Assembly: GCA_964534625.1 (NCBI GenBank)
Contig: CAZHRF010000008.1
Span: forward strand, 13,016-77,015
Reading direction: 5' to 3'
From: an uncultured archaeon
Lineage (GTDB): Archaea > Asgardarchaeota > Heimdallarchaeia > Heimdallarchaeales > Heimdallarchaeaceae
Length of the DNA: 64,000 nucleotides
Part shown: piece by piece, positions 13,618 to 26,692 of the stretch
How the letters are laid out: the number at the start of each line of letters is the position of its first letter
How positions within the stretch are numbered: the stretch's first letter is position 1
Position numbers and translations under genes: made by a program
The notes under the pieces: model-generated
What the model was told of the DNA's origin: nothing
Databases searched by the model: none
What the model saw: the letters and a program-made list of their open reading frames with translations, nothing else

Positions 13618-13731
13618 TTGAACTTCCGAAATAGTGTGATAATACATCAAAATCAAGAAATAAATCGATTTATTTTCGGTGTAAACATATTGAAGAGTAT
13701 ATAATATTATTGCTTAATTCGGAAAGTACTA
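13618..13731 (+). mobile_element. MITE copy 3 (114 bp)
   Basis: TTGAACTTCCGAAATAGTG ... CTTAATTCGGAAAGTACTA; flanks TTATT/TTATG (4 of 5 match). Confidence 0.75.
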
Positions 13732-13805
13732 TTATGAGTTCTCTCTGTATGAGTTGTGATAGATTTCAAGAAAAGTATTTAAAGCATCAAAAATATACCG
13801 TTTTT

Positions 13806-15359
13806 ATGAATATCTCTGACATTGGCTCTTTAATTCAAAGACTGGTTCAAAAAACCAACAAATCAGAAGATCAAATCAAGGTAATGATTGCAAATAAAGT
13901 AAAAGAATATGAAGGTTTATTGACAGAATCAGGTGCAGCCTTTCTTATTCTCAAAGAAATTGATGATACGTTTACGCAAACTACTACATACAAACCCGAA
14001 TTTTTAGCTATCAATAAAATCACTAAGTCCCACGGTATTTGTTCTGTTAAAGGTATAATCGTTTCTAGCTCAAATGTTCGTTCTTTTCTTAGAAAAGATG
14101 GATCAGTAGGCGAGTATACTTCTTTTCTTTTATCGGATAATACAGATTTAATTCGTGTTGTTCTGTGGGATGAGAAAACCTCTTTTGTTGAATCTCTTGA
14201 TTTAAAAAGAGGAAAAACCGTTGAAATTATTAATGTTTACCCTAAAACTGACCGTAATCAAAAATTGGAATTACATTCAGGGAGAAATACAATAATCGAA
14301 CCTCTTTCTACTGATGAAGAGTATATTTTACCTGAAGCTGAGCATATAGATATAACAAACATTGATGAATCTACTAGCAATTTCAAAATTATTGCTAAAA
14401 TAGAATCAATATCTCCAGAGAGAGTATTCGAACGTTCAGATGGTACAGAAGGTAAAGTTATCAATTACGTGCTTAGAGATAAAACTGGTACTATCAGTTT
14501 AGCATTTTGGAATAAAAGAACGGAAAAGGCTAAAGAAATTATGGGTGCTACTACTCATCTATCAGAAGCGATCATTGAAGTAGTTAATCCTTATGTCCGC
14601 AAGAATAGTTTTGAAGAACTTGAATTAGGTGTTGGGCGAGAAACAGAGATCACTATTTTAGAGAACTACGACTTAGGCTTACCCGATGAATATCCAACAA
14701 AAGATTTACCCTTAATCAAAATAGGAGAAATTGATAAAGAGAGTGGTTTTGTTAGAACTATGGGTATAGTAGGTAAAGTGCGGGAGATAAATGAATTTAC
14801 CCGATCAAATGGAGATTTGGGGGCAGTATGTTCTTTTTATTTAATTGATGAAACGGGTGAGATTAGAGTTGTTCTTTGGAACGAGAAAACAGAATTGATT
14901 AATGAATTGTTAGAGTATGCACCCGTTCAGTTGAACAATTTTATTGCCAAACTAGACAGAGAAAATGAAATAGAATTACATTCCATAAACTCTTCTTCTA
15001 TCACCAAAGAAGGACTTGAAGAAATATTCACCCCTGAAAACTTTCTAAAAAACATCTTCGAGATCAAAGATAGAATGTATAATTTAACTATCCGAGTAAA
15101 AATTAATTCAATAGGCGAAGAGAGAACCTATATAAGAGATGATGGTTCTTCAGCTACCGTATTGAATGTTGATGTGGAAGATTTGACAGGAAAAGCGCGA
15201 TTATCTGTCTGGGATAATGAAATAGCAAAAATAGAATCAATTCCAGAAGAAACATGGGTTGAAATAACAGGTGTAAGATCAAAGGTATCTGAAATGGGTT
15301 TAGACTTAATCTTAAGCAAAGCATCTAAAGTTGAAGTATTAAAACAAGCAAGAAATTAG
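13806..15359 (+). CDS. rpa: Replication protein A (helical N-domain plus four OB folds)
   Basis: N-terminal 'KVKEYEGLLTESGAAFLI'; four repeats with R.DG..G / D.TG.IR..LW. The ORF-track start 13710 lies inside the MITE, so ATG 13806 is preferred. Confidence 0.88.
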   Translation: MNISDIGSLIQRLVQKTNKSEDQIKVMIANKVKEYEGLLTESGAAFLILKEIDDTFTQTTTYKPEFLAINKITKSHGICSVKGIIVSSSNVRSFLRKDGSVGEYTSFLLSDNTDLIRVVLWDEKTSFVESLDLKRGKTVEIINVYPKTDRNQKLELHSGRNTIIEPLSTDEEYILPEAEHIDITNIDESTSNFKIIAKIESISPERVFERSDGTEGKVINYVLRDKTGTISLAFWNKRTEKAKEIMGATTHLSEAIIEVVNPYVRKNSFEELELGVGRETEITILENYDLGLPDEYPTKDLPLIKIGEIDKESGFVRTMGIVGKVREINEFTRSNGDLGAVCSFYLIDETGEIRVVLWNEKTELINELLEYAPVQLNNFIAKLDRENEIELHSINSSSITKEGLEEIFTPENFLKNIFEIKDRMYNLTIRVKINSIGEERTYIRDDGSSATVLNVDVEDLTGKARLSVWDNEIAKIESIPEETWVEITGVRSKVSEMGLDLILSKASKVEVLKQARN

Positions 15360-17245: not shown

Positions 17246-17794
17246 ATTTCAGAAGATTTCGAAGAGGAACTGTTAGAATTAGCAAAGATTCAAAATGACA
17301 ATGACCAACAAAAAAAGAGAGAAAAAGATCTGCTAGAAAAAAAAAATCGGATGCAAAAAAAACTCTCTCAAAAGCCTACTGCGTTACGATTGCCTGTTTT
17401 TCAATTTGCGATTATTGAACTATCAGGCATTATTTTATACAATCGCCGATTTGAAAAAGAGCTCATGGATGAATTTCTCTTCTCTGGTTTTAGCGCGGCA
17501 ATCATAGCCTTTTCTAAAGAATTAGGAACAACTTTGTATATGATATCTATGAAGGATGTGAATTTCTTCTTCAAAGAATTAGGGGACTTTTTTATTGTAA
17601 TAGCTTCAGATCCAGCAATAAATAACGAGGATGTCAAAACATTAATTGAAACTATTACTAATCAATTAATATCCATTGAACTGAACAAGCTTCCTAATAT
17701 TAACGATTATTTTCTCACGGATGAGTTTGATGATTTTATTCTGCAAGCTATGATCCATTTCCAGATAGAGCAAAAAGGAAATGTTATTAAGTAA
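17246..17794 (+). CDS. Coiled-coil plus longin-like domain protein (probable ATT start)
   Basis: 'FAIIELSGIILYNRRF...DEFLFSGFSAAIIAFSKEL...ISMKDVNFFFKELGDFFIVIA' is longin-like. The frame opens after TAG 17231, and GGAGGT lies 7 nt before ATT 17246 (ORF-track ATG is 17351). Confidence 0.75.
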   Translation: MSEDFEEELLELAKIQNDNDQQKKREKDLLEKKNRMQKKLSQKPTALRLPVFQFAIIELSGIILYNRRFEKELMDEFLFSGFSAAIIAFSKELGTTLYMISMKDVNFFFKELGDFFIVIASDPAINNEDVKTLIETITNQLISIELNKLPNINDYFLTDEFDDFILQAMIHFQIEQKGNVIK

Positions 17795-17941: not shown

Positions 17942-19717
17942 CTATTCTTCAACCACGCCATATATTCTAAGTACATTAGCCCCTATTTTCTTTTGTTTCT
18001 TGATTCTAAATTTTCCAATCTCTCCCGTATGGTCTACATGCGGTCCTGCACAAAATTCTTTAGAAAAGTTTCCAACTGAATAGATGCTTACTTTATCGCC
18101 ATATGTTTCATCAAATAATCCTATAGCATTGGATTTTTTCGCTTCTTCAAGTGGCATTATCTCTTTTTCAACTGGCAAATCCGCTTCAACTTGTTCATTA
18201 ACTATCTCTTCTACTTGTTTAACTTCTTCTTTAGTCATTTTTCTTTTGAAAGTAACATCAAAGCGTGTTCTTTCTTTGGTGATGTTAGAACCAGTTTGAT
18301 GAACAGTATCACCCAAGACATTTCTCAATGCTTGATGGAGCAAATGTGTCGCTGTATGATAACGTTTAACTGTTTTTGAGTGATCACTTAATCCAGATTG
18401 AAACCTTCCCTTAGCTGCTGTTCTTGATAATTCCTTATGTTCTTCAAAAGAAGCATAAAATTCTTCTTTATTTATAGGTAAATTACGTTCTGCCAATAAT
18501 TCAAAAATGATTTCTTTAGGCATTCCATAGGTTGAAAAGAGCATGAAAGCGTCTTCACCTGATAATCCATTATTATTGTCTACCATTCTATTGAATTTCC
18601 TCATCCCTCTTTTAATGGTATTACGGAACTTCTTGGCTTCTTTTTCAGTTTGTTGGTATACAAAATCTCTTCTCTCTATTAATTCCGGATAATGATCGCC
18701 AAATTCTTCTATTATTGGATTAATTAATTCTAATATAATATCAAGTTCTAGGTCTAATTGATCTAGTTTAACCATTGCGCGTCTTAATAACCGTCTAATG
18801 ACATATCCTTGCTCTTCTTTACCAGGAGGTATGCCTTTAGGATCACCCATAGCGAAAACAGCACTACGAGTATGATCTACAATTATTCTAATTCTTTTAA
18901 TATCCTTATCAGTAAGATCATCTTCCTTTCCAACTAATTCTTTAACTTTTTCAAATAAAGGTTGGAAAACATGTGTATCGTAAATTGTTTCTTTTCTATT
19001 CAAAATTTGTAGCATTCTCTCCACTCCCATTCCTGTATCGATATTTTGTTGTTCTAATATGTTATATGTTCCATCAGGTTGTTTATCATAAAACATAAAC
19101 ACATCATTCCAGACTTCAACATACTTGCCACAACTGCATCCGGGTTTACAGTTTTCACTACATTTATCGAATCCATTATCAAAGAACATCTCAGTATCTG
19201 GGCCACATGGACCCACATGTCCTACTGGTCCCCACCAATTATCTTCTCGACCTAAAAAGAAAATATGATCTTCAGGAACACCTAAATCCATCCATATGTT
19301 TTTAGACTCTTCATCTCGCGGAATTTCTTCATCTCCTTCATAGAGAGTAATGTAAATCTGATTTGGATCCATATTCAGCCATTCTTTACCCGTTAAAAAC
19401 TCAAATGACCATGATATGGCTTCTTTTTTACCATAATCTCCAAGAGACCAATTTCCTAACATCTCAAAAAATGTTAAATGTGTAGTATCGCCTACTTCGT
19501 CAATATCACCAGTCCGTATACATCTCTGAACATTATATAATCGCGTCCCTAATGGATGCCTTTCACCTAATAAATAAGGAACAATAGGATGCATGCCTGC
19601 ACTTGTGAAAAGTGCACTAGGGTCGTTCTCAGGGTAAAGAGAAAAGTTTTGGATTTTTTTGTGATCTTTGCCTTCAAAGAATTTGAAATAAAGCTCAATT
19701 AGAGTCTTTCTATCCAT
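17942..19717 (-). CDS. alaS: Alanine--tRNA ligase, short form lacking the C-Ala domain
   Basis: LFTSAGM, QRCIRTGDIDEVG, HLTFFEMLGNWS, IDTGMGVER; editing motifs HTATHLLH and EFCAGPHV. Confidence 0.97.
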   Translation of the reverse strand: MDRKTLIELYFKFFEGKDHKKIQNFSLYPENDPSALFTSAGMHPIVPYLLGERHPLGTRLYNVQRCIRTGDIDEVGDTTHLTFFEMLGNWSLGDYGKKEAISWSFEFLTGKEWLNMDPNQIYITLYEGDEEIPRDEESKNIWMDLGVPEDHIFFLGREDNWWGPVGHVGPCGPDTEMFFDNGFDKCSENCKPGCSCGKYVEVWNDVFMFYDKQPDGTYNILEQQNIDTGMGVERMLQILNRKETIYDTHVFQPLFEKVKELVGKEDDLTDKDIKRIRIIVDHTRSAVFAMGDPKGIPPGKEEQGYVIRRLLRRAMVKLDQLDLELDIILELINPIIEEFGDHYPELIERRDFVYQQTEKEAKKFRNTIKRGMRKFNRMVDNNNGLSGEDAFMLFSTYGMPKEIIFELLAERNLPINKEEFYASFEEHKELSRTAAKGRFQSGLSDHSKTVKRYHTATHLLHQALRNVLGDTVHQTGSNITKERTRFDVTFKRKMTKEEVKQVEEIVNEQVEADLPVEKEIMPLEEAKKSNAIGLFDETYGDKVSIYSVGNFSKEFCAGPHVDHTGEIGKFRIKKQKKIGANVLRIYGVVEE

Positions 19718-19946
19718 AATTAGTAATACCTCATCTTGAAATGATGAAAAGTCTATAAAAAAATTATTGTTTTACGAGAGTCTCTCCAAATTTTGTAGGT
19801 GAGATTTATTTCTCTCATTATCATATCAATTATTCTTAGATAGTGCATTTTTTGAATTTTTGAGTTGTTTTTTTCTCGTATTCCTAGTAAATACATTTTT
19901 AACTATGTTTACCTCAATTGTGATTGATTAATATACGTGAGTTATA

Positions 19947-21881
19947 ATGAAGTCAATAGAAGAGATCTGTGAAAAATTTGCAGTACAAAATGCTCTAGAG
20001 CATGGTGAAGCTAAAATCGGTCCTGTTATGGGGAAAGTGATGTCAGCTCATCCTGAACTAAGAAAAAAGGCTAACGAAGTCAAAGATATAGCATTAAAAC
20101 AAATTGACCTAATTAACACATTAACCGTATCAGAAATTCAACAAATAGCTCAAGACCGATATCCAGACTTGCTTAAAGAGGATAAGAGTAATGAGCAAGA
20201 AGGTACAGACTTCATTCGCGCCATAGTCGAAAAACATATGGAAACAGGCCGTTTTAACGGAAAAGTACGTACTCGTTTTCCTCCCGAACCTAATGGCTTT
20301 CTTCATATAGGGCATGCCTTTTCTATCTTATACAACTATAATCTCGCTAAAGAGTATAATGGAACATTTAATTTCCGTTTTGACGATACTAATCCCATCA
20401 AAGAAGAAGATGTCTATGTTAAGGGAATGATTGAAGATATCAAATGGCTGGATGTCTATGAGAAGCGGGGAGATGATGATAATGTTTTGTTTGGCTCCGA
20501 TTATTTCCAACAGTTTTATGATTATGCTTTACAATTAGTAGAAAAAGGTTTAGCCTACGTTGATGATTTGAGTGCTGATGAAATTAGTGAACTACGTGGA
20601 ACATTAACTGAACCTGGTGAAAAGAGTCCTTATCGAGATCGACCTGTTGAAGAGAATTTAGATTTATTTAAACGCATGAAAGTAGGGGAATTTCCCGATG
20701 GTGCAAAAGTTTTACGAGCTAAAATCGATATGGCTCACCCTAACATGAATATGCGTGACCCAGTTATGTATAGAATCCTCCATAAATCTCATCATAACAC
20801 GGGAGATAAATGGTGTGTCTATCCCATGTATGACTGGGCTCATGGGTTAGAAGATTCAATTGAAGGTATTACTCATTCTATCTGTACTCTGGAATTTGAA
20901 AACCATAGACCTCTTTATGATTGGTTTTTAGATCAGCTTGAAGATGAAGAAAATAACCCGATTCATCACCCCCAGCAAATAGAATTCGCGAGAGTCAATG
21001 TTTCGCATACTGTGTTAAGTAAACGTAGGGCTCTCATTTTAGTCAATGAGGGATATGTAAATGGATGGGATGATCCACGGCTTCTTACTATAACGGGGTT
21101 AAGAAAAGCTGGTGTGCCTGTGGCAGCTATTCGTTCTTTTTGTGAGAGTATAGGAATCTCTAAACGAGATAGAATTATTGATAGGTCAATTTTAGACCAT
21201 CACATACGGGAAGAATTAAACAAAATTTGTCCTCGTACTATGGCTGTTATAGACCCATTAAAAGTTGTAATAACTAATTATCCAGAAGGGAAAGAAGAGA
21301 AATTTGAAGTTTCTAACCATCCTTTTGATACATCATATGGAACTCGTAAGATAACATTTTCTCGTGAAATTTATATCGATCGAGACGATTTCATGGAAAA
21401 TCCACCTGATGATTTCTATAGACTATCTAAGGATAGAGAAGTACGCCTTAAATATGCTTATCTAATTACTTGTGATGAAATAATTAGGGATGAAAAAACA
21501 GACCAAATAGTCCAATTAAATTGCTCATACGATCCTAAGACTTATGGTGGGAAAGTACCAGATGGAAGAAATGTAAGAGGAACTATTCATTGGATTTCAG
21601 TTGCTCATGCAGAAAAAACTACCATACATCTTTATGATAGATTATGTACACGAGCTAATCCAATGGATACTGAAGAAGGAAAAGAATTTACAGAATATGT
21701 TAATCCTGATTCATTTAAGATTAAAGAAGCATATGTTGAGCCATATTTAATCAAAGAAGAGTTAGGTACAAGAGTGCAGTTTGAACGTAATGGCTATTTC
21801 TATTTGAGTCCATATGAATCTACTCAAGATAATAAAGTGTTCATACAAATCATCTCTCTAAAAGATTCTTGGTCCAAGTAG
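19947..21881 (+). CDS. glnS: Glutamine--tRNA ligase with archaeal GluRS-like N-terminal domain
   Basis: RFPPEPNGFLHIGH, RFDDTNP, YPMYDWAH..EDSIEGITHSICTLEF, QIEFAR, VLSKR, GWDDPRL, GTIHW, QFERNGYF. Confidence 0.92.
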   Translation: MKSIEEICEKFAVQNALEHGEAKIGPVMGKVMSAHPELRKKANEVKDIALKQIDLINTLTVSEIQQIAQDRYPDLLKEDKSNEQEGTDFIRAIVEKHMETGRFNGKVRTRFPPEPNGFLHIGHAFSILYNYNLAKEYNGTFNFRFDDTNPIKEEDVYVKGMIEDIKWLDVYEKRGDDDNVLFGSDYFQQFYDYALQLVEKGLAYVDDLSADEISELRGTLTEPGEKSPYRDRPVEENLDLFKRMKVGEFPDGAKVLRAKIDMAHPNMNMRDPVMYRILHKSHHNTGDKWCVYPMYDWAHGLEDSIEGITHSICTLEFENHRPLYDWFLDQLEDEENNPIHHPQQIEFARVNVSHTVLSKRRALILVNEGYVNGWDDPRLLTITGLRKAGVPVAAIRSFCESIGISKRDRIIDRSILDHHIREELNKICPRTMAVIDPLKVVITNYPEGKEEKFEVSNHPFDTSYGTRKITFSREIYIDRDDFMENPPDDFYRLSKDREVRLKYAYLITCDEIIRDEKTDQIVQLNCSYDPKTYGGKVPDGRNVRGTIHWISVAHAEKTTIHLYDRLCTRANPMDTEEGKEFTEYVNPDSFKIKEAYVEPYLIKEELGTRVQFERNGYFYLSPYESTQDNKVFIQIISLKDSWSK

Positions 21882-25155: not shown

Positions 25156-25420
25156 TTCATCACTAAACGATAATGGGTAATAACCCATTATAAACGTTGT
25201 CTTTGTAAACAAAGTTAAATAAGGAGATAGAGCTAAAAGAAACTCATCTCTGATTCTAAAGTGTGGGGTGTATCTCTGTATCTATTAATTAGTTATATTT
25301 GATAAGTTAAGACGGATTATACTGAGAAAAAACATGGTTGATGAATGTCTGATTTATTTGAGTACTAACTTAATTAAGGCAAAAAATTATATACCCTTAA
25401 TATCTTTACACTTTGATTAT

Positions 25421-26692
25421 ATGCATACTAACGACGAAGATGACCCTTGGCTTATGGCTTTGTCACAATTAGACAGAATAGCCAAACTTATAGATTTAGA
25501 TCCAGATATACATGAATTTTTAAAAAACCCAATGCGTATTTATGAAGTAAATTTTCCTGTCAAAATGGATAATGGCTCAATTAAAGTATTTAAGGGCTTT
25601 AGAGTCCATCATGTAGAGATATTTCCAAGCAAAGGGGGGATAAAATATGCCCCGTACGTAACTAAAGAAGAAATGCAAGCATTAGCCATGTGGATGACGT
25701 GGAAATGTGCAGTTGTTGAACTCCCCTACTCTGGCGCAAAGGGTGGCGTTATATGTGACCCTACTAAGATGTCTGTAAGGGAAATAGAGAACCTTACTCG
25801 TCGATACACTTTCCAGTTATGTAATGTTTTTGATCCCCAATATGATATACCTGCTCCCGATGTTAATACCTCATCACGCGAAATGGCTTGGATTTACGAC
25901 ACATATAGTATGAATAAAGGTCATTCAGTACTTGGTGTTGTTACTGGTAAGCCTGTTGAAGTTGGGGGTTCTAAAGGTAGAGATGCTGCTACAGGAAGAG
26001 GGGTCTTTTTCACAACACGTGAGATTCTTAAAAAGAAAAATAAGCCTTTAGAAGGGGCCACTATAGCTATTCAAGGTTTTGGTAATGTTGGATCATGGTT
26101 TGCTAGAATAGCTCATGAGCATGGGGCAAAGGTGGTTGGTATTGTTGATCTTTATGGTGGGGTATATAATCCCGATGGCTTAGATATAGAAGATTTGTAC
26201 AAATATGTCTATGAAAATGGAGATAATCCAATAAAAACAGTCAAAGATTATCCCAAAGCTGATCCATTGACCAACGAAGAATTATGGAAATTAGATGTGG
26301 ATGTATTAAGCCCTTGTGCAACTGAAGGTCAGATAACTAAACAAAATGCACCTGATATAAGAGCCAAGATTATTGTTGAAGGAGCTAATGGACCAACAAC
26401 ACCTGAAGCTGACGACATTCTTACTGAAAAAGACATAGTTGTAGTACCAGATATACTCGCTAATGCTGGTGGTGTAACCGTAAGTTATTTTGAATGGGTA
26501 CAAGGCAATGACGCACTCTTTTGGGAAGAAGAAGAAGTTAACAAAAGACTTGAGCAGATAATGGTCAAAGCATTCAATGAAGTTTATGATAAGAAACAAG
26601 AAATGGATGTACCAAGTTTAAGATTAGCTGCCTACGCCATTGCAGTAAAAAGAGTTGCTAAACAAATAGAACTTAGGGGTATCTATCCCTAA
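25421..26692 (+). CDS. gdhA: Glutamate dehydrogenase (Glu/Leu/Phe/Val family)
   Basis: KGGI, MTWKCAVVELPYSGAKGG, IPAPDVNT, ATGRG, QGFGNVG, EGANGP, PDILANAGGVTVSYFEWVQ. Confidence 0.95.
   Translation: MHTNDEDDPWLMALSQLDRIAKLIDLDPDIHEFLKNPMRIYEVNFPVKMDNGSIKVFKGFRVHHVEIFPSKGGIKYAPYVTKEEMQALAMWMTWKCAVVELPYSGAKGGVICDPTKMSVREIENLTRRYTFQLCNVFDPQYDIPAPDVNTSSREMAWIYDTYSMNKGHSVLGVVTGKPVEVGGSKGRDAATGRGVFFTTREILKKKNKPLEGATIAIQGFGNVGSWFARIAHEHGAKVVGIVDLYGGVYNPDGLDIEDLYKYVYENGDNPIKTVKDYPKADPLTNEELWKLDVDVLSPCATEGQITKQNAPDIRAKIIVEGANGPTTPEADDILTEKDIVVVPDILANAGGVTVSYFEWVQGNDALFWEEEEVNKRLEQIMVKAFNEVYDKKQEMDVPSLRLAAYAIAVKRVAKQIELRGIYP

Follow-up and report, generated by a model that had tools for sequence, protein, structure and literature searches.

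The 64,000-nucleotide stretch of DNA analyzed here (the window), which belongs to contig CAZHRF010000008.1 of an uncultured archaeon of the Heimdallarchaeaceae, carries a gene for a glutaminyl-tRNA synthetase (GlnRS) of mixed ancestry. The body of the protein is a bacterial-type GlnRS, and its first 80 residues form a small helical domain (N-domain) of the type that precedes the catalytic domain in archaeal glutamyl-tRNA synthetases (GluRS). The protein is probably a working, glutamine-specific enzyme that was imported from bacteria and later fused to the N-domain of an archaeal GluRS, which would assist tRNA binding in cis. The elements of the gene are the following:

19947..21881, + strand: complete chimeric GlnRS gene, a single open reading frame (ORF) of 644 amino acids plus stop, without internal stop
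19947..20186, + strand: N-domain, residues 1-80, a four- to five-helix module of archaeal-GluRS type (3aii and NF003169 matches; model)
20187..20210, + strand: acidic disordered linker, residues ~81-88 (low predicted local distance difference test score, pLDDT; variable among homologues)
20211..21878, + strand: bacterial-type GlnRS body, residues 89-644 (profile and structure scores, residue mapping, trees)
20262..21179, + strand: class Ic catalytic domain PF00749, residues 106-411 (Pfam E 2.9e-95)
within 20262..21179, + strand: HIGH at residues 120-123, VLSKR at 356-360, and glutamine pocket R110, Y295, S311, C313 and Q344 (mapped onto E. coli GlnRS)
20901..20903, + strand: codon of Asn319, at the position of E. 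coli Asp235 (alignment to E. coli GlnRS)
21228..21806, + strand: two beta-barrel anticodon-binding domains, PF03950 at residues 428-529 and PF20974 at 546-620 (Pfam E 6e-30 and 2.2e-19)
within 21228..21806, + strand: R430, R492, R500, Q611 and R614 of the anticodon-binding domains (conserved U35/G36-reading residues)

The motifs YDWAH, HSICTLEF, QIEFAR and TDFIRAIVEKHM all occur in the 644-residue translation, where an initial annotation made from the letters of the window had placed them. An AlphaFold2 model of the full-length protein (mean pLDDT 92) has a two-module layout in which only residues 78-86 fall below 50. When the N-domain is modeled from a 113-sequence alignment, residues 1-80 reach a pLDDT of ~96, with helices at 4-19, 24-34, 36-57, 61-71 and 74-80, and are followed by a disordered acidic linker (pLDDT <50 at residues 80-88). 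The linker differs in length and sequence between homologues. A Pfam scan of the whole protein assigns no family to the first 100 residues.

The body is a bacterial-type GlnRS in which the glutamine-specific and anticodon-reading residues are intact. The protein scores 628.4 bits against TIGR00440, the glnS equivalog model (cut-off 425.8), over the full profile (positions 1-524 of 524). Residues 83-644 can be aligned over their whole length with the solved structures of Pseudomonas aeruginosa GlnRS (5bnz, 617 bits) and E. coli GlnRS (597-600 bits); scores are 465 bits for Deinococcus radiodurans GlnRS (2hz7), 375 for the human and 347 for the yeast enzyme, and 196 for archaeal GluRS (3aii). 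The archaeal GluRS models TIGR00463 and NF003169 are missed by the whole protein (356.8 bits for a cut-off of 401.75, and 348.8 for 516). The match to NF011291, the model of GlnRS/YqeY domain fusions, is confined to positions 8-558 of 769, and nothing follows the GlnRS body in the protein. Pfam detects in it neither a GatB_Yqey domain, such as the C-terminal YqeY domain that marks the NF011291 type, nor the N-terminal family that marks eukaryotic GlnRS.

Residue by residue, the window protein agrees with E. coli GlnRS at R30, Y211, S227, C229 and Q255, and none of these positions varies among the enzymes that share its architecture (the fused clade). Position 229, occupied by Arg in GluRS, is Cys313 here. 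The HIGH motif and the KMSK lysine (E. coli K270) are conserved, as are the anticodon readers R341, R402, R410, Q517 and R520 (E. coli numbering), and the Leu136 unpairing loop and the G36-recognition loop, both missing from archaeal GluRS, are present. The initial annotation had called the body an E. coli-type GlnRS carrying the glutamine determinants, and these data bear it out. One E. coli feature is not kept: Asp235, which reads G3:C70, is replaced by Asn319 in the window protein and by V, N or I across the fused clade, never by Asp. Since sampled bacterial GlnRS themselves have Asp in 20 of 30 cases and Asn in 10 of 30, this residue is a specificity detail and not one that defines the family.

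Trees of the body, covering bacterial and archaeal GlnRS, were built on 550 columns and rooted on archaeal GluRS. The fused clade is monophyletic (98/100 support), has a long stem and is nested among bacterial GlnRS. E. coli lies outside a group that contains all archaeal GlnRS together with enzymes of Chloroflexota, Planctomycetota, Desulfobacterota and other bacteria. Because the body falls inside bacterial GlnRS diversity, we regard it as imported, the archaeal lineage having apparently gained a bacterial GlnRS by horizontal transfer. By the same token, the enzyme does not look like a forerunner of eukaryotic GlnRS, the comparison with eukaryotes being one of bit scores to PDB structures only.

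Two other archaeal lineages have bacterial-type GlnRS. The enzymes of Hodarchaeales are devoid of the N-domain and are 70-72% identical to those of Desulfobacterota. Many metagenome-assembled genomes (MAGs) of Thermoplasmatota / Methanomassiliicoccales (L044-L102) also encode a bacterial-type GlnRS without the N-domain, 54-58% identical to the body of the window enzyme; the Thermoplasmatota enzymes form a clade of their own (100/100 support), which makes this the third archaeal lineage with GlnRS. The fused and Hodarchaeales clades are joined in a FastTree tree (support 0.31) and in a quick maximum-likelihood tree (Shimodaira-Hasegawa-like approximate likelihood ratio test, SH-aLRT, 89). A more careful tree splits them, and the approximately unbiased test keeps their joining acceptable (p 0.37), so that the trees are compatible with one acquisition as well as with two.

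The N-domain has a different kinship. A search with just residues 1-100 yields matches to archaeal GluRS only, and these are in register (residues 3-86 of 3aii, E 2.6e-8; positions 3-87 of NF003169, E 3.2e-16), as had been read from the letters for residues ~1-80. When 1.8 billion representative proteins were searched exhaustively with residues 1-88 by phmmer, 121 matches resulted. In nearly all of them the domain is at the N-terminus of a GluRS-sized protein (528-624 residues) or makes up a short fragment, and the full-length named proteins are archaeal GluRS. The likeness is far beyond chance. The N-domains of GlnRS and GluRS have in common a signature composed of K10, N15, A16, H19, G20, A22, G25, PELR36-39, N57, E63 and PELL73-76. 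The preservation of these residues in every fused GlnRS implies that purifying selection has acted for one and the same function, and argues that the N-domain may still do here what it does in GluRS.

As to the donor, the evidence points to an archaeal GluRS. A hidden Markov model of the GlnRS N-domains has its best scores, 75-83 bits, on a particular type of GluRS from Hodarchaeales; other archaeal GluRS, the named ones being from Thermoprotei or Nitrososphaerota, give 60-75 bits. The GluRS resident in the window's own family (f1) and in a second family with the fusion (f7) reach only 37-60 and 41-62 bits. In a 90-column tree, the GlnRS N-domains group with GluRS of Hodarchaeales type and some unnamed ones, one of them from Nanoarchaeota (SH-aLRT 92), and the resident f1 and f7 GluRS fall apart from this group. 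Separate trees, which the initial annotation had called for, place the N-domain with archaeal GluRS and the body among bacterial GlnRS. The initial annotation had also proposed that an acquired GlnRS was fitted with the GluRS domain of its host. The acquisition is supported; that the domain came from the host's own GluRS is a weaker proposal, since other archaeal GluRS are closer to it.

The fusion is widespread among close relatives. Full-length homologues (57-66% identity) form about 50 protein clusters, the named ones coming from MAGs of Heimdallarchaeaceae, Heimdallarchaeota and "Asgard group". A scan of 400 Asgard genomes found GlnRS in only three families, f1, f7 and the Hodarchaeales (f5), all of them in the class of the window, Heimdallarchaeia. 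Of the 42 genomes sampled from f1 and f7, 31 have the fused form (21 of 30 in f1, 10 of 12 in f7), and the N-domains of these 31 genomes are 41-67% identical. Two of the genomes, G014 and G015, are closed single contigs of 3.1 and 3.3 Mb. At the locus itself, the GC content is unbroken across the junction and equal to that of the flanks; being at host level, it indicates that the gene has been ameliorated. The fusion is not a misassembly, and the host is an Asgard archaeon, as had been supposed.

Two annotation problems were met with in this survey. First, in RDOD01000062.1 (L208:1261-1500) the protein is annotated as 559 residues long from an internal Met, and the 80 codons of the N-domain lie in frame upstream, without a stop; the internal start is a start-site artefact. 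Several NCBI records of 559-577 residues probably share the same truncation. Second, the NCBI name "GlnRS/YqeY domain fusion protein" is a misnomer for the fused clade, because only the GlnRS part of NF011291 is matched and its YqeY part is not.

The genome has two tRNAGln genes (CUG and UUG anticodons) on contig C27, with CCA encoded. Both tRNAs are of archaeal type, with A1-U72, A73, G2-C71, G10 and either C3:G70 or U3:A70. The initial annotation had asked whether gltX and gatD/gatE are in the genome, and all are: an archaeal GluRS gene is retained on contig C17, and gatE and gatD are adjacent (G000 C33:32917-36145; L003/L004/L125). Asparaginyl-tRNA synthetase is present as well, and GatCAB was not found in the genome. 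With GluRS, GatDE and GlnRS in one genome, the direct and indirect routes to Gln-tRNAGln coexist on paper, the direct one being added to the indirect one and not visibly replacing it.

GatE is found in 80 of the 83 genomes of the class, and GatDE is kept in nearly all GlnRS-bearing genomes. In f1, however, GatE exists only in a divergent form (375-410 bits to TIGR00134, versus 560-640 in sister families without GlnRS), whose YqeY-like tail is weak or undetectable and has a degenerate motif. The f7 genomes have one canonical and one divergent GatE, and in two of them the divergent copy is on the GlnRS contig. GluRS is also heterogeneous in f1: those of G014 and G015 (L172, L173) are 39% identical to the GluRS of the window genome, and the others (L136-L161) 56-61%. 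Two GluRS types occur in f5 genomes.

In Hodarchaeales, the tRNAGln genes beside GlnRS (L197, L198, L206, L034) are bacterial-like, with G73 and without encoded CCA. One genome of this group, G066, has a further tRNAGln(UUG) elsewhere, with the archaeal A73, which suggests two tRNAGln sets, one per pathway. In Thermoplasmatota, the tRNAGln genes on the flanks of GlnRS have A73, as is often the case, or G73.

From these observations, the following scenario can be proposed. A lineage of Heimdallarchaeia would have taken up a bacterial-type GlnRS by horizontal transfer, and a later gene fusion would have joined to it, by a flexible acidic linker, the helical N-domain (~80 residues) of an archaeal GluRS. 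Like E. coli GlnRS, the body would activate glutamine and read the CUG and UUG anticodons. The tethered N-domain would serve in cis to bind tRNA or to raise the affinity for it, helping the imported enzyme to hold the archaeal-type tRNAGln (A1-U72, A73, non-G3:C70), and the loss of the Asp235 acceptor-stem readout would fit the same adaptation to the host tRNA. Gln-tRNAGln would then be made directly, alongside the retained GluRS and the divergent GatDE. By analogy with other GlnRS, a cis-acting tRNA-binding helper is the most likely role of the N-domain. Indeed, the YqeY domain of D. radiodurans GlnRS works only in cis, and once it is deleted the Km for tRNAGln is 24 times higher and kcat/Km 108 times lower (PMC1865053). 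The N-terminal domain of yeast Gln4 also binds tRNAGln (PMC3333875).

The initial annotation had set the N-domain against YqeY-like appendages. This opposition does not stand, since residues 1-85 of archaeal GluRS had already been named a disordered "YQEY domain" (Nureki et al., 2010; PMC2978374), and the window enzyme would be the same design again. Our own comparisons agree with this label in direction and are weak. With hhalign, residues 1-55 of the N-domain align with the last 60 residues of GatE at P 7e-4 and a weak probability of 26%, the alignment pairing up a G-x-x-M-G-K-I/V-M motif. VIA-align superposes the N-domain on residues 119-182 of human GlnRS, the N-terminal tail subdomain, with a Z score of 5.2. 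A Pfam scan of the 113 N-domains gave no consistent family. Assigning a fold from structure was given up, as a wide VIA-align comparison returned only middling helical bundles (best Z 6.2).

Several points weigh against the proposed role and history. PF02637 (GatB_Yqey) matched none of the 113 N-domains, Foldseek found no match of the N-domain model in the PDB at E <= 0.001, and the Z score of 5.2 is tied with those of many unrelated helical bundles. The N-domain has a net acidic charge (12 K+R versus 14 D+E), not what one usually finds in a general RNA binder. In the only crystal structure of an archaeal GluRS, this domain is disordered (PMC2978374). The cell has kept GluRS and GatDE and may therefore be able to do without GlnRS. 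Finally, Thermoplasmatota GlnRS without the N-domain adjoin A73 tRNAGln genes and some bacteria have Asn at position 235; neither the N-domain nor the loss of Asp235 is thus strictly needed for archaeal tRNAGln. The Hodarchaeales and Thermoplasmatota enzymes being devoid of it, the N-domain is not required for an archaeal GlnRS, and the earlier idea that it allows the direct route has to be abandoned; it would be at most helpful. The more specific idea that it compensates for A73, which the Hodarchaeales contrast (no domain, adjoining tRNA with G73) had seemed to support, was dropped in its strict form in view of the domain-less Thermoplasmatota GlnRS beside A73 tRNAs.

The acidic character of the N-domain would better suit another role, which we consider doubtful but the strongest of the alternatives. 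The N-domain could be a protein docking module linking GlnRS to a partner of GluRS, within a GatDE transamidosome-like complex, with EF-1alpha or in a multi-synthetase assembly, so that tRNAGln or Gln-tRNAGln is channeled. GluRS and the fused GlnRS have signature residues of the surface in common, an archaeal GluRS-GatDE-tRNAGln transamidosome has been described (PMC9499178), and GatDE persists beside GlnRS in nearly all genomes concerned. However, the GluRS N-domain has no known partner, the degenerate tail of f1 GatE is ill-suited to a conserved interaction with GatDE, and both of the appended GlnRS domains studied experimentally, those of Deinococcus and yeast, act on tRNA.

That the N-domain is a neutral leftover of recombination or an artefact of ORF calling, the functional enzyme starting at about residue 85, seems to us very unlikely. 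Some NCBI records of 559-566 residues do start at an internal Met, and other archaeal GlnRS work without the domain. Yet no in-frame Met occurs near residue 85 of the window protein, where M32 is followed only by M98, in the first helix of the body, and the coding sequence of the N-domain continues in frame upstream of the shortened record. Moreover, a domain with a confidently predicted fold that 31 genomes from two families have preserved with its GluRS signature intact, in spite of identities of 41-67%, is hardly a leftover.

Equally improbable is a changed specificity, by which the protein would not be a genuine GlnRS and would charge Glu, or another tRNA such as a tRNAGln-like molecule with a UUA anticodon. 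The idea draws on the loss of the acceptor-stem determinant Asp235, D235N being a mischarging mutant of E. coli GlnRS, and on the odd tRNAGln-like genes that adjoin the GlnRS gene in relatives. Nevertheless, the residues of the glutamine pocket and those that read the anticodon are all invariant, and the odd tRNA was not found in the window genome. A misassembled junction, or a bacterial contaminant contig in an archaeal bin, can be set aside: the source genome is indeed a 120-contig MAG (3.37 Mb, ~90% complete, 2.6% estimated contamination), but the same fusion occurs in the two closed genomes and in dozens of independent assemblies, the GC content is continuous, and a longin-domain protein and an RPA-like protein with an OB fold, both of a kind typically met with in Asgard genomes, are encoded nearby.

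With the imported and fused GlnRS retained as the preferred reading, a further step can be envisaged, to which we give only limited credit. In Heimdallarchaeaceae, GlnRS may have already taken over the synthesis of Gln-tRNAGln, GatE with its degenerate tRNA-binding tail and the fast-evolving GluRS being in decay or repurposed. If so, close archaeal relatives of eukaryotes would here be caught in passing from the indirect pathway to the direct one, and with the design of eukaryotic GlnRS, that is, a core preceded by an N-terminal GatB/YqeY-like tRNA sensor.

Compared with known enzymes, the body has the domain order, motifs, pocket and loops of bacterial GlnRS (E. coli GlnS, 1GTR/1QTQ/1O0B; P. 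aeruginosa, 5BNZ; TIGR00440). The window enzyme differs from these by the 80-residue helical N-domain and linker, found in no sampled bacterial GlnRS, by Asn in place of Asp235 (Val or Ile in relatives), by its archaeal host, and by its presumed substrate, a tRNAGln with A1-U72 and A73. GlnRS of D. radiodurans (2HZ7; PMC1865053) likewise combines a bacterial-type core with a flexibly tethered small helical domain. Its appendage is a C-terminal YqeY domain of 215 residues, whereas the one described here is N-terminal, has ~80 residues, is of archaeal-GluRS type and is not detected by PF02637, and the body is closer to the Pseudomonas enzyme (617 bits) than to 2hz7 (465 bits). Eukaryotic GlnRS (yeast Gln4, 3TL4; human, 4YE6) also have an N-terminal helical domain before the core, but theirs is made of two subdomains (~185 residues), and the window body is of bacterial affinity (617 bits versus 375 for human). 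In the non-discriminating GluRS of M. thermautotrophicus (3AII; NF003169/TIGR00463), the same N-domain immediately precedes the class Ic catalytic domain. In contrast, the window enzyme's domains for catalysis and for anticodon binding are those of a GlnRS, with Cys for Arg at position 229 and with the G36 and unpairing loops. Finally, the Hodarchaeales and Thermoplasmatota GlnRS are likewise bacterial-type enzymes in archaea, usually linked to tRNAGln genes, and lack the N-domain. Another kind of appended tRNA-binding domain, PF01588 (tRNA_bind), is found as an extra domain on many GlnRS of ~707 residues (P0159, P0162, P0179, P0211 and others; the named ones are from Deltaproteobacteria).

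The enzyme is thus of a known kind, GlnRS with a putative tRNA-binding helical appendage; new are the N-terminal position, the GluRS origin and the archaeal host. Next to Deinococcus and eukaryotes, it is a third case of a GlnRS core with a tethered helical appendage, the present one being of a type labeled YqeY-like in the literature. A 2022 review states that no archaeon has GlnRS and gives as the cause the incompatibility of archaeal tRNAGln with a foreign GlnRS (PMC9499178). This barrier appears to have been crossed here and in two other archaeal lineages, and the Heimdall solution is distinctive in that the imported enzyme was fitted with a small archaeal GluRS domain. A transfer of GlnRS to Archaea is touched on, in a general way, by Lei and Burton (2022); our literature search found no paper pairing glutaminyl-tRNA synthetase with Heimdallarchaeota, and none describing the fusion. 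The system offers a natural experiment on the adaptation of a synthetase to a foreign tRNA, on the role of the N-domain in archaeal GluRS, and on the coexistence or replacement of the direct and indirect pathways. It also draws attention to the two annotation problems, the name derived from NF011291 and the records that cut off the N-domain.

The surroundings of the gene vary. In most f1 relatives, tRNAGln genes are located 60-100 nucleotides downstream of the fused GlnRS gene, a linkage that counts in favor of the preferred reading; in the 64-kb window, no tRNAGln gene lies next to it. Beside these tRNAGln genes, some f1 relatives have a tRNAGln-like gene with an AGCCC acceptor stem, A73 and mostly A1-U72, and with either a UUA anticodon or an odd 6-nucleotide anticodon loop (UUUAGG):

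L032:2229-2302 (G013): tRNAGln-like gene
L014:1165-1239: tRNAGln-like gene
L010:1132-1206: tRNAGln-like gene
L012:1168-1242: tRNAGln-like gene
L038:6538-6612: tRNAGln-like gene

A UUA anticodon would read the UAA stop codon, and such a gene could be an ochre-suppressor candidate or a pseudo-tRNA.

In the window, the GlnRS gene is paired head to head with a divergent gene for alanyl-tRNA synthetase (AlaRS), an adjacency not seen at the loci of relatives. The neighboring features are:

19718..19946, no strand: AT-rich spacer of 229 bp separating the GlnRS gene from the divergent AlaRS gene, the presumed promoter region (sequence and ORF map)
17942-19717, - strand: AlaRS, 591 residues, short form; no other gene of the genome has an AlaRS catalytic domain
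17351-17794, + strand: small longin-domain protein
13710-15359, + strand: multi-OB-fold RPA-like protein
25334-26692, + strand: glutamate dehydrogenase

Appler et al. (2024) reported GlnRS beside cox genes (coxABC neighborhood) in Hodarchaeales and Kariarchaeaceae; cox genes are absent among the ten neighboring ORFs scanned here (13.7-28.9 kb of the window). The AlaRS scores 799 bits against NF002436, 585 against TIGR00344 (alaS; cut-off 457), which we take to be the bacterial-type AlaRS model, and 237 against the archaeal TIGR03683 (cut-off 745). It would be a second apparently non-archaeal synthetase at this locus.

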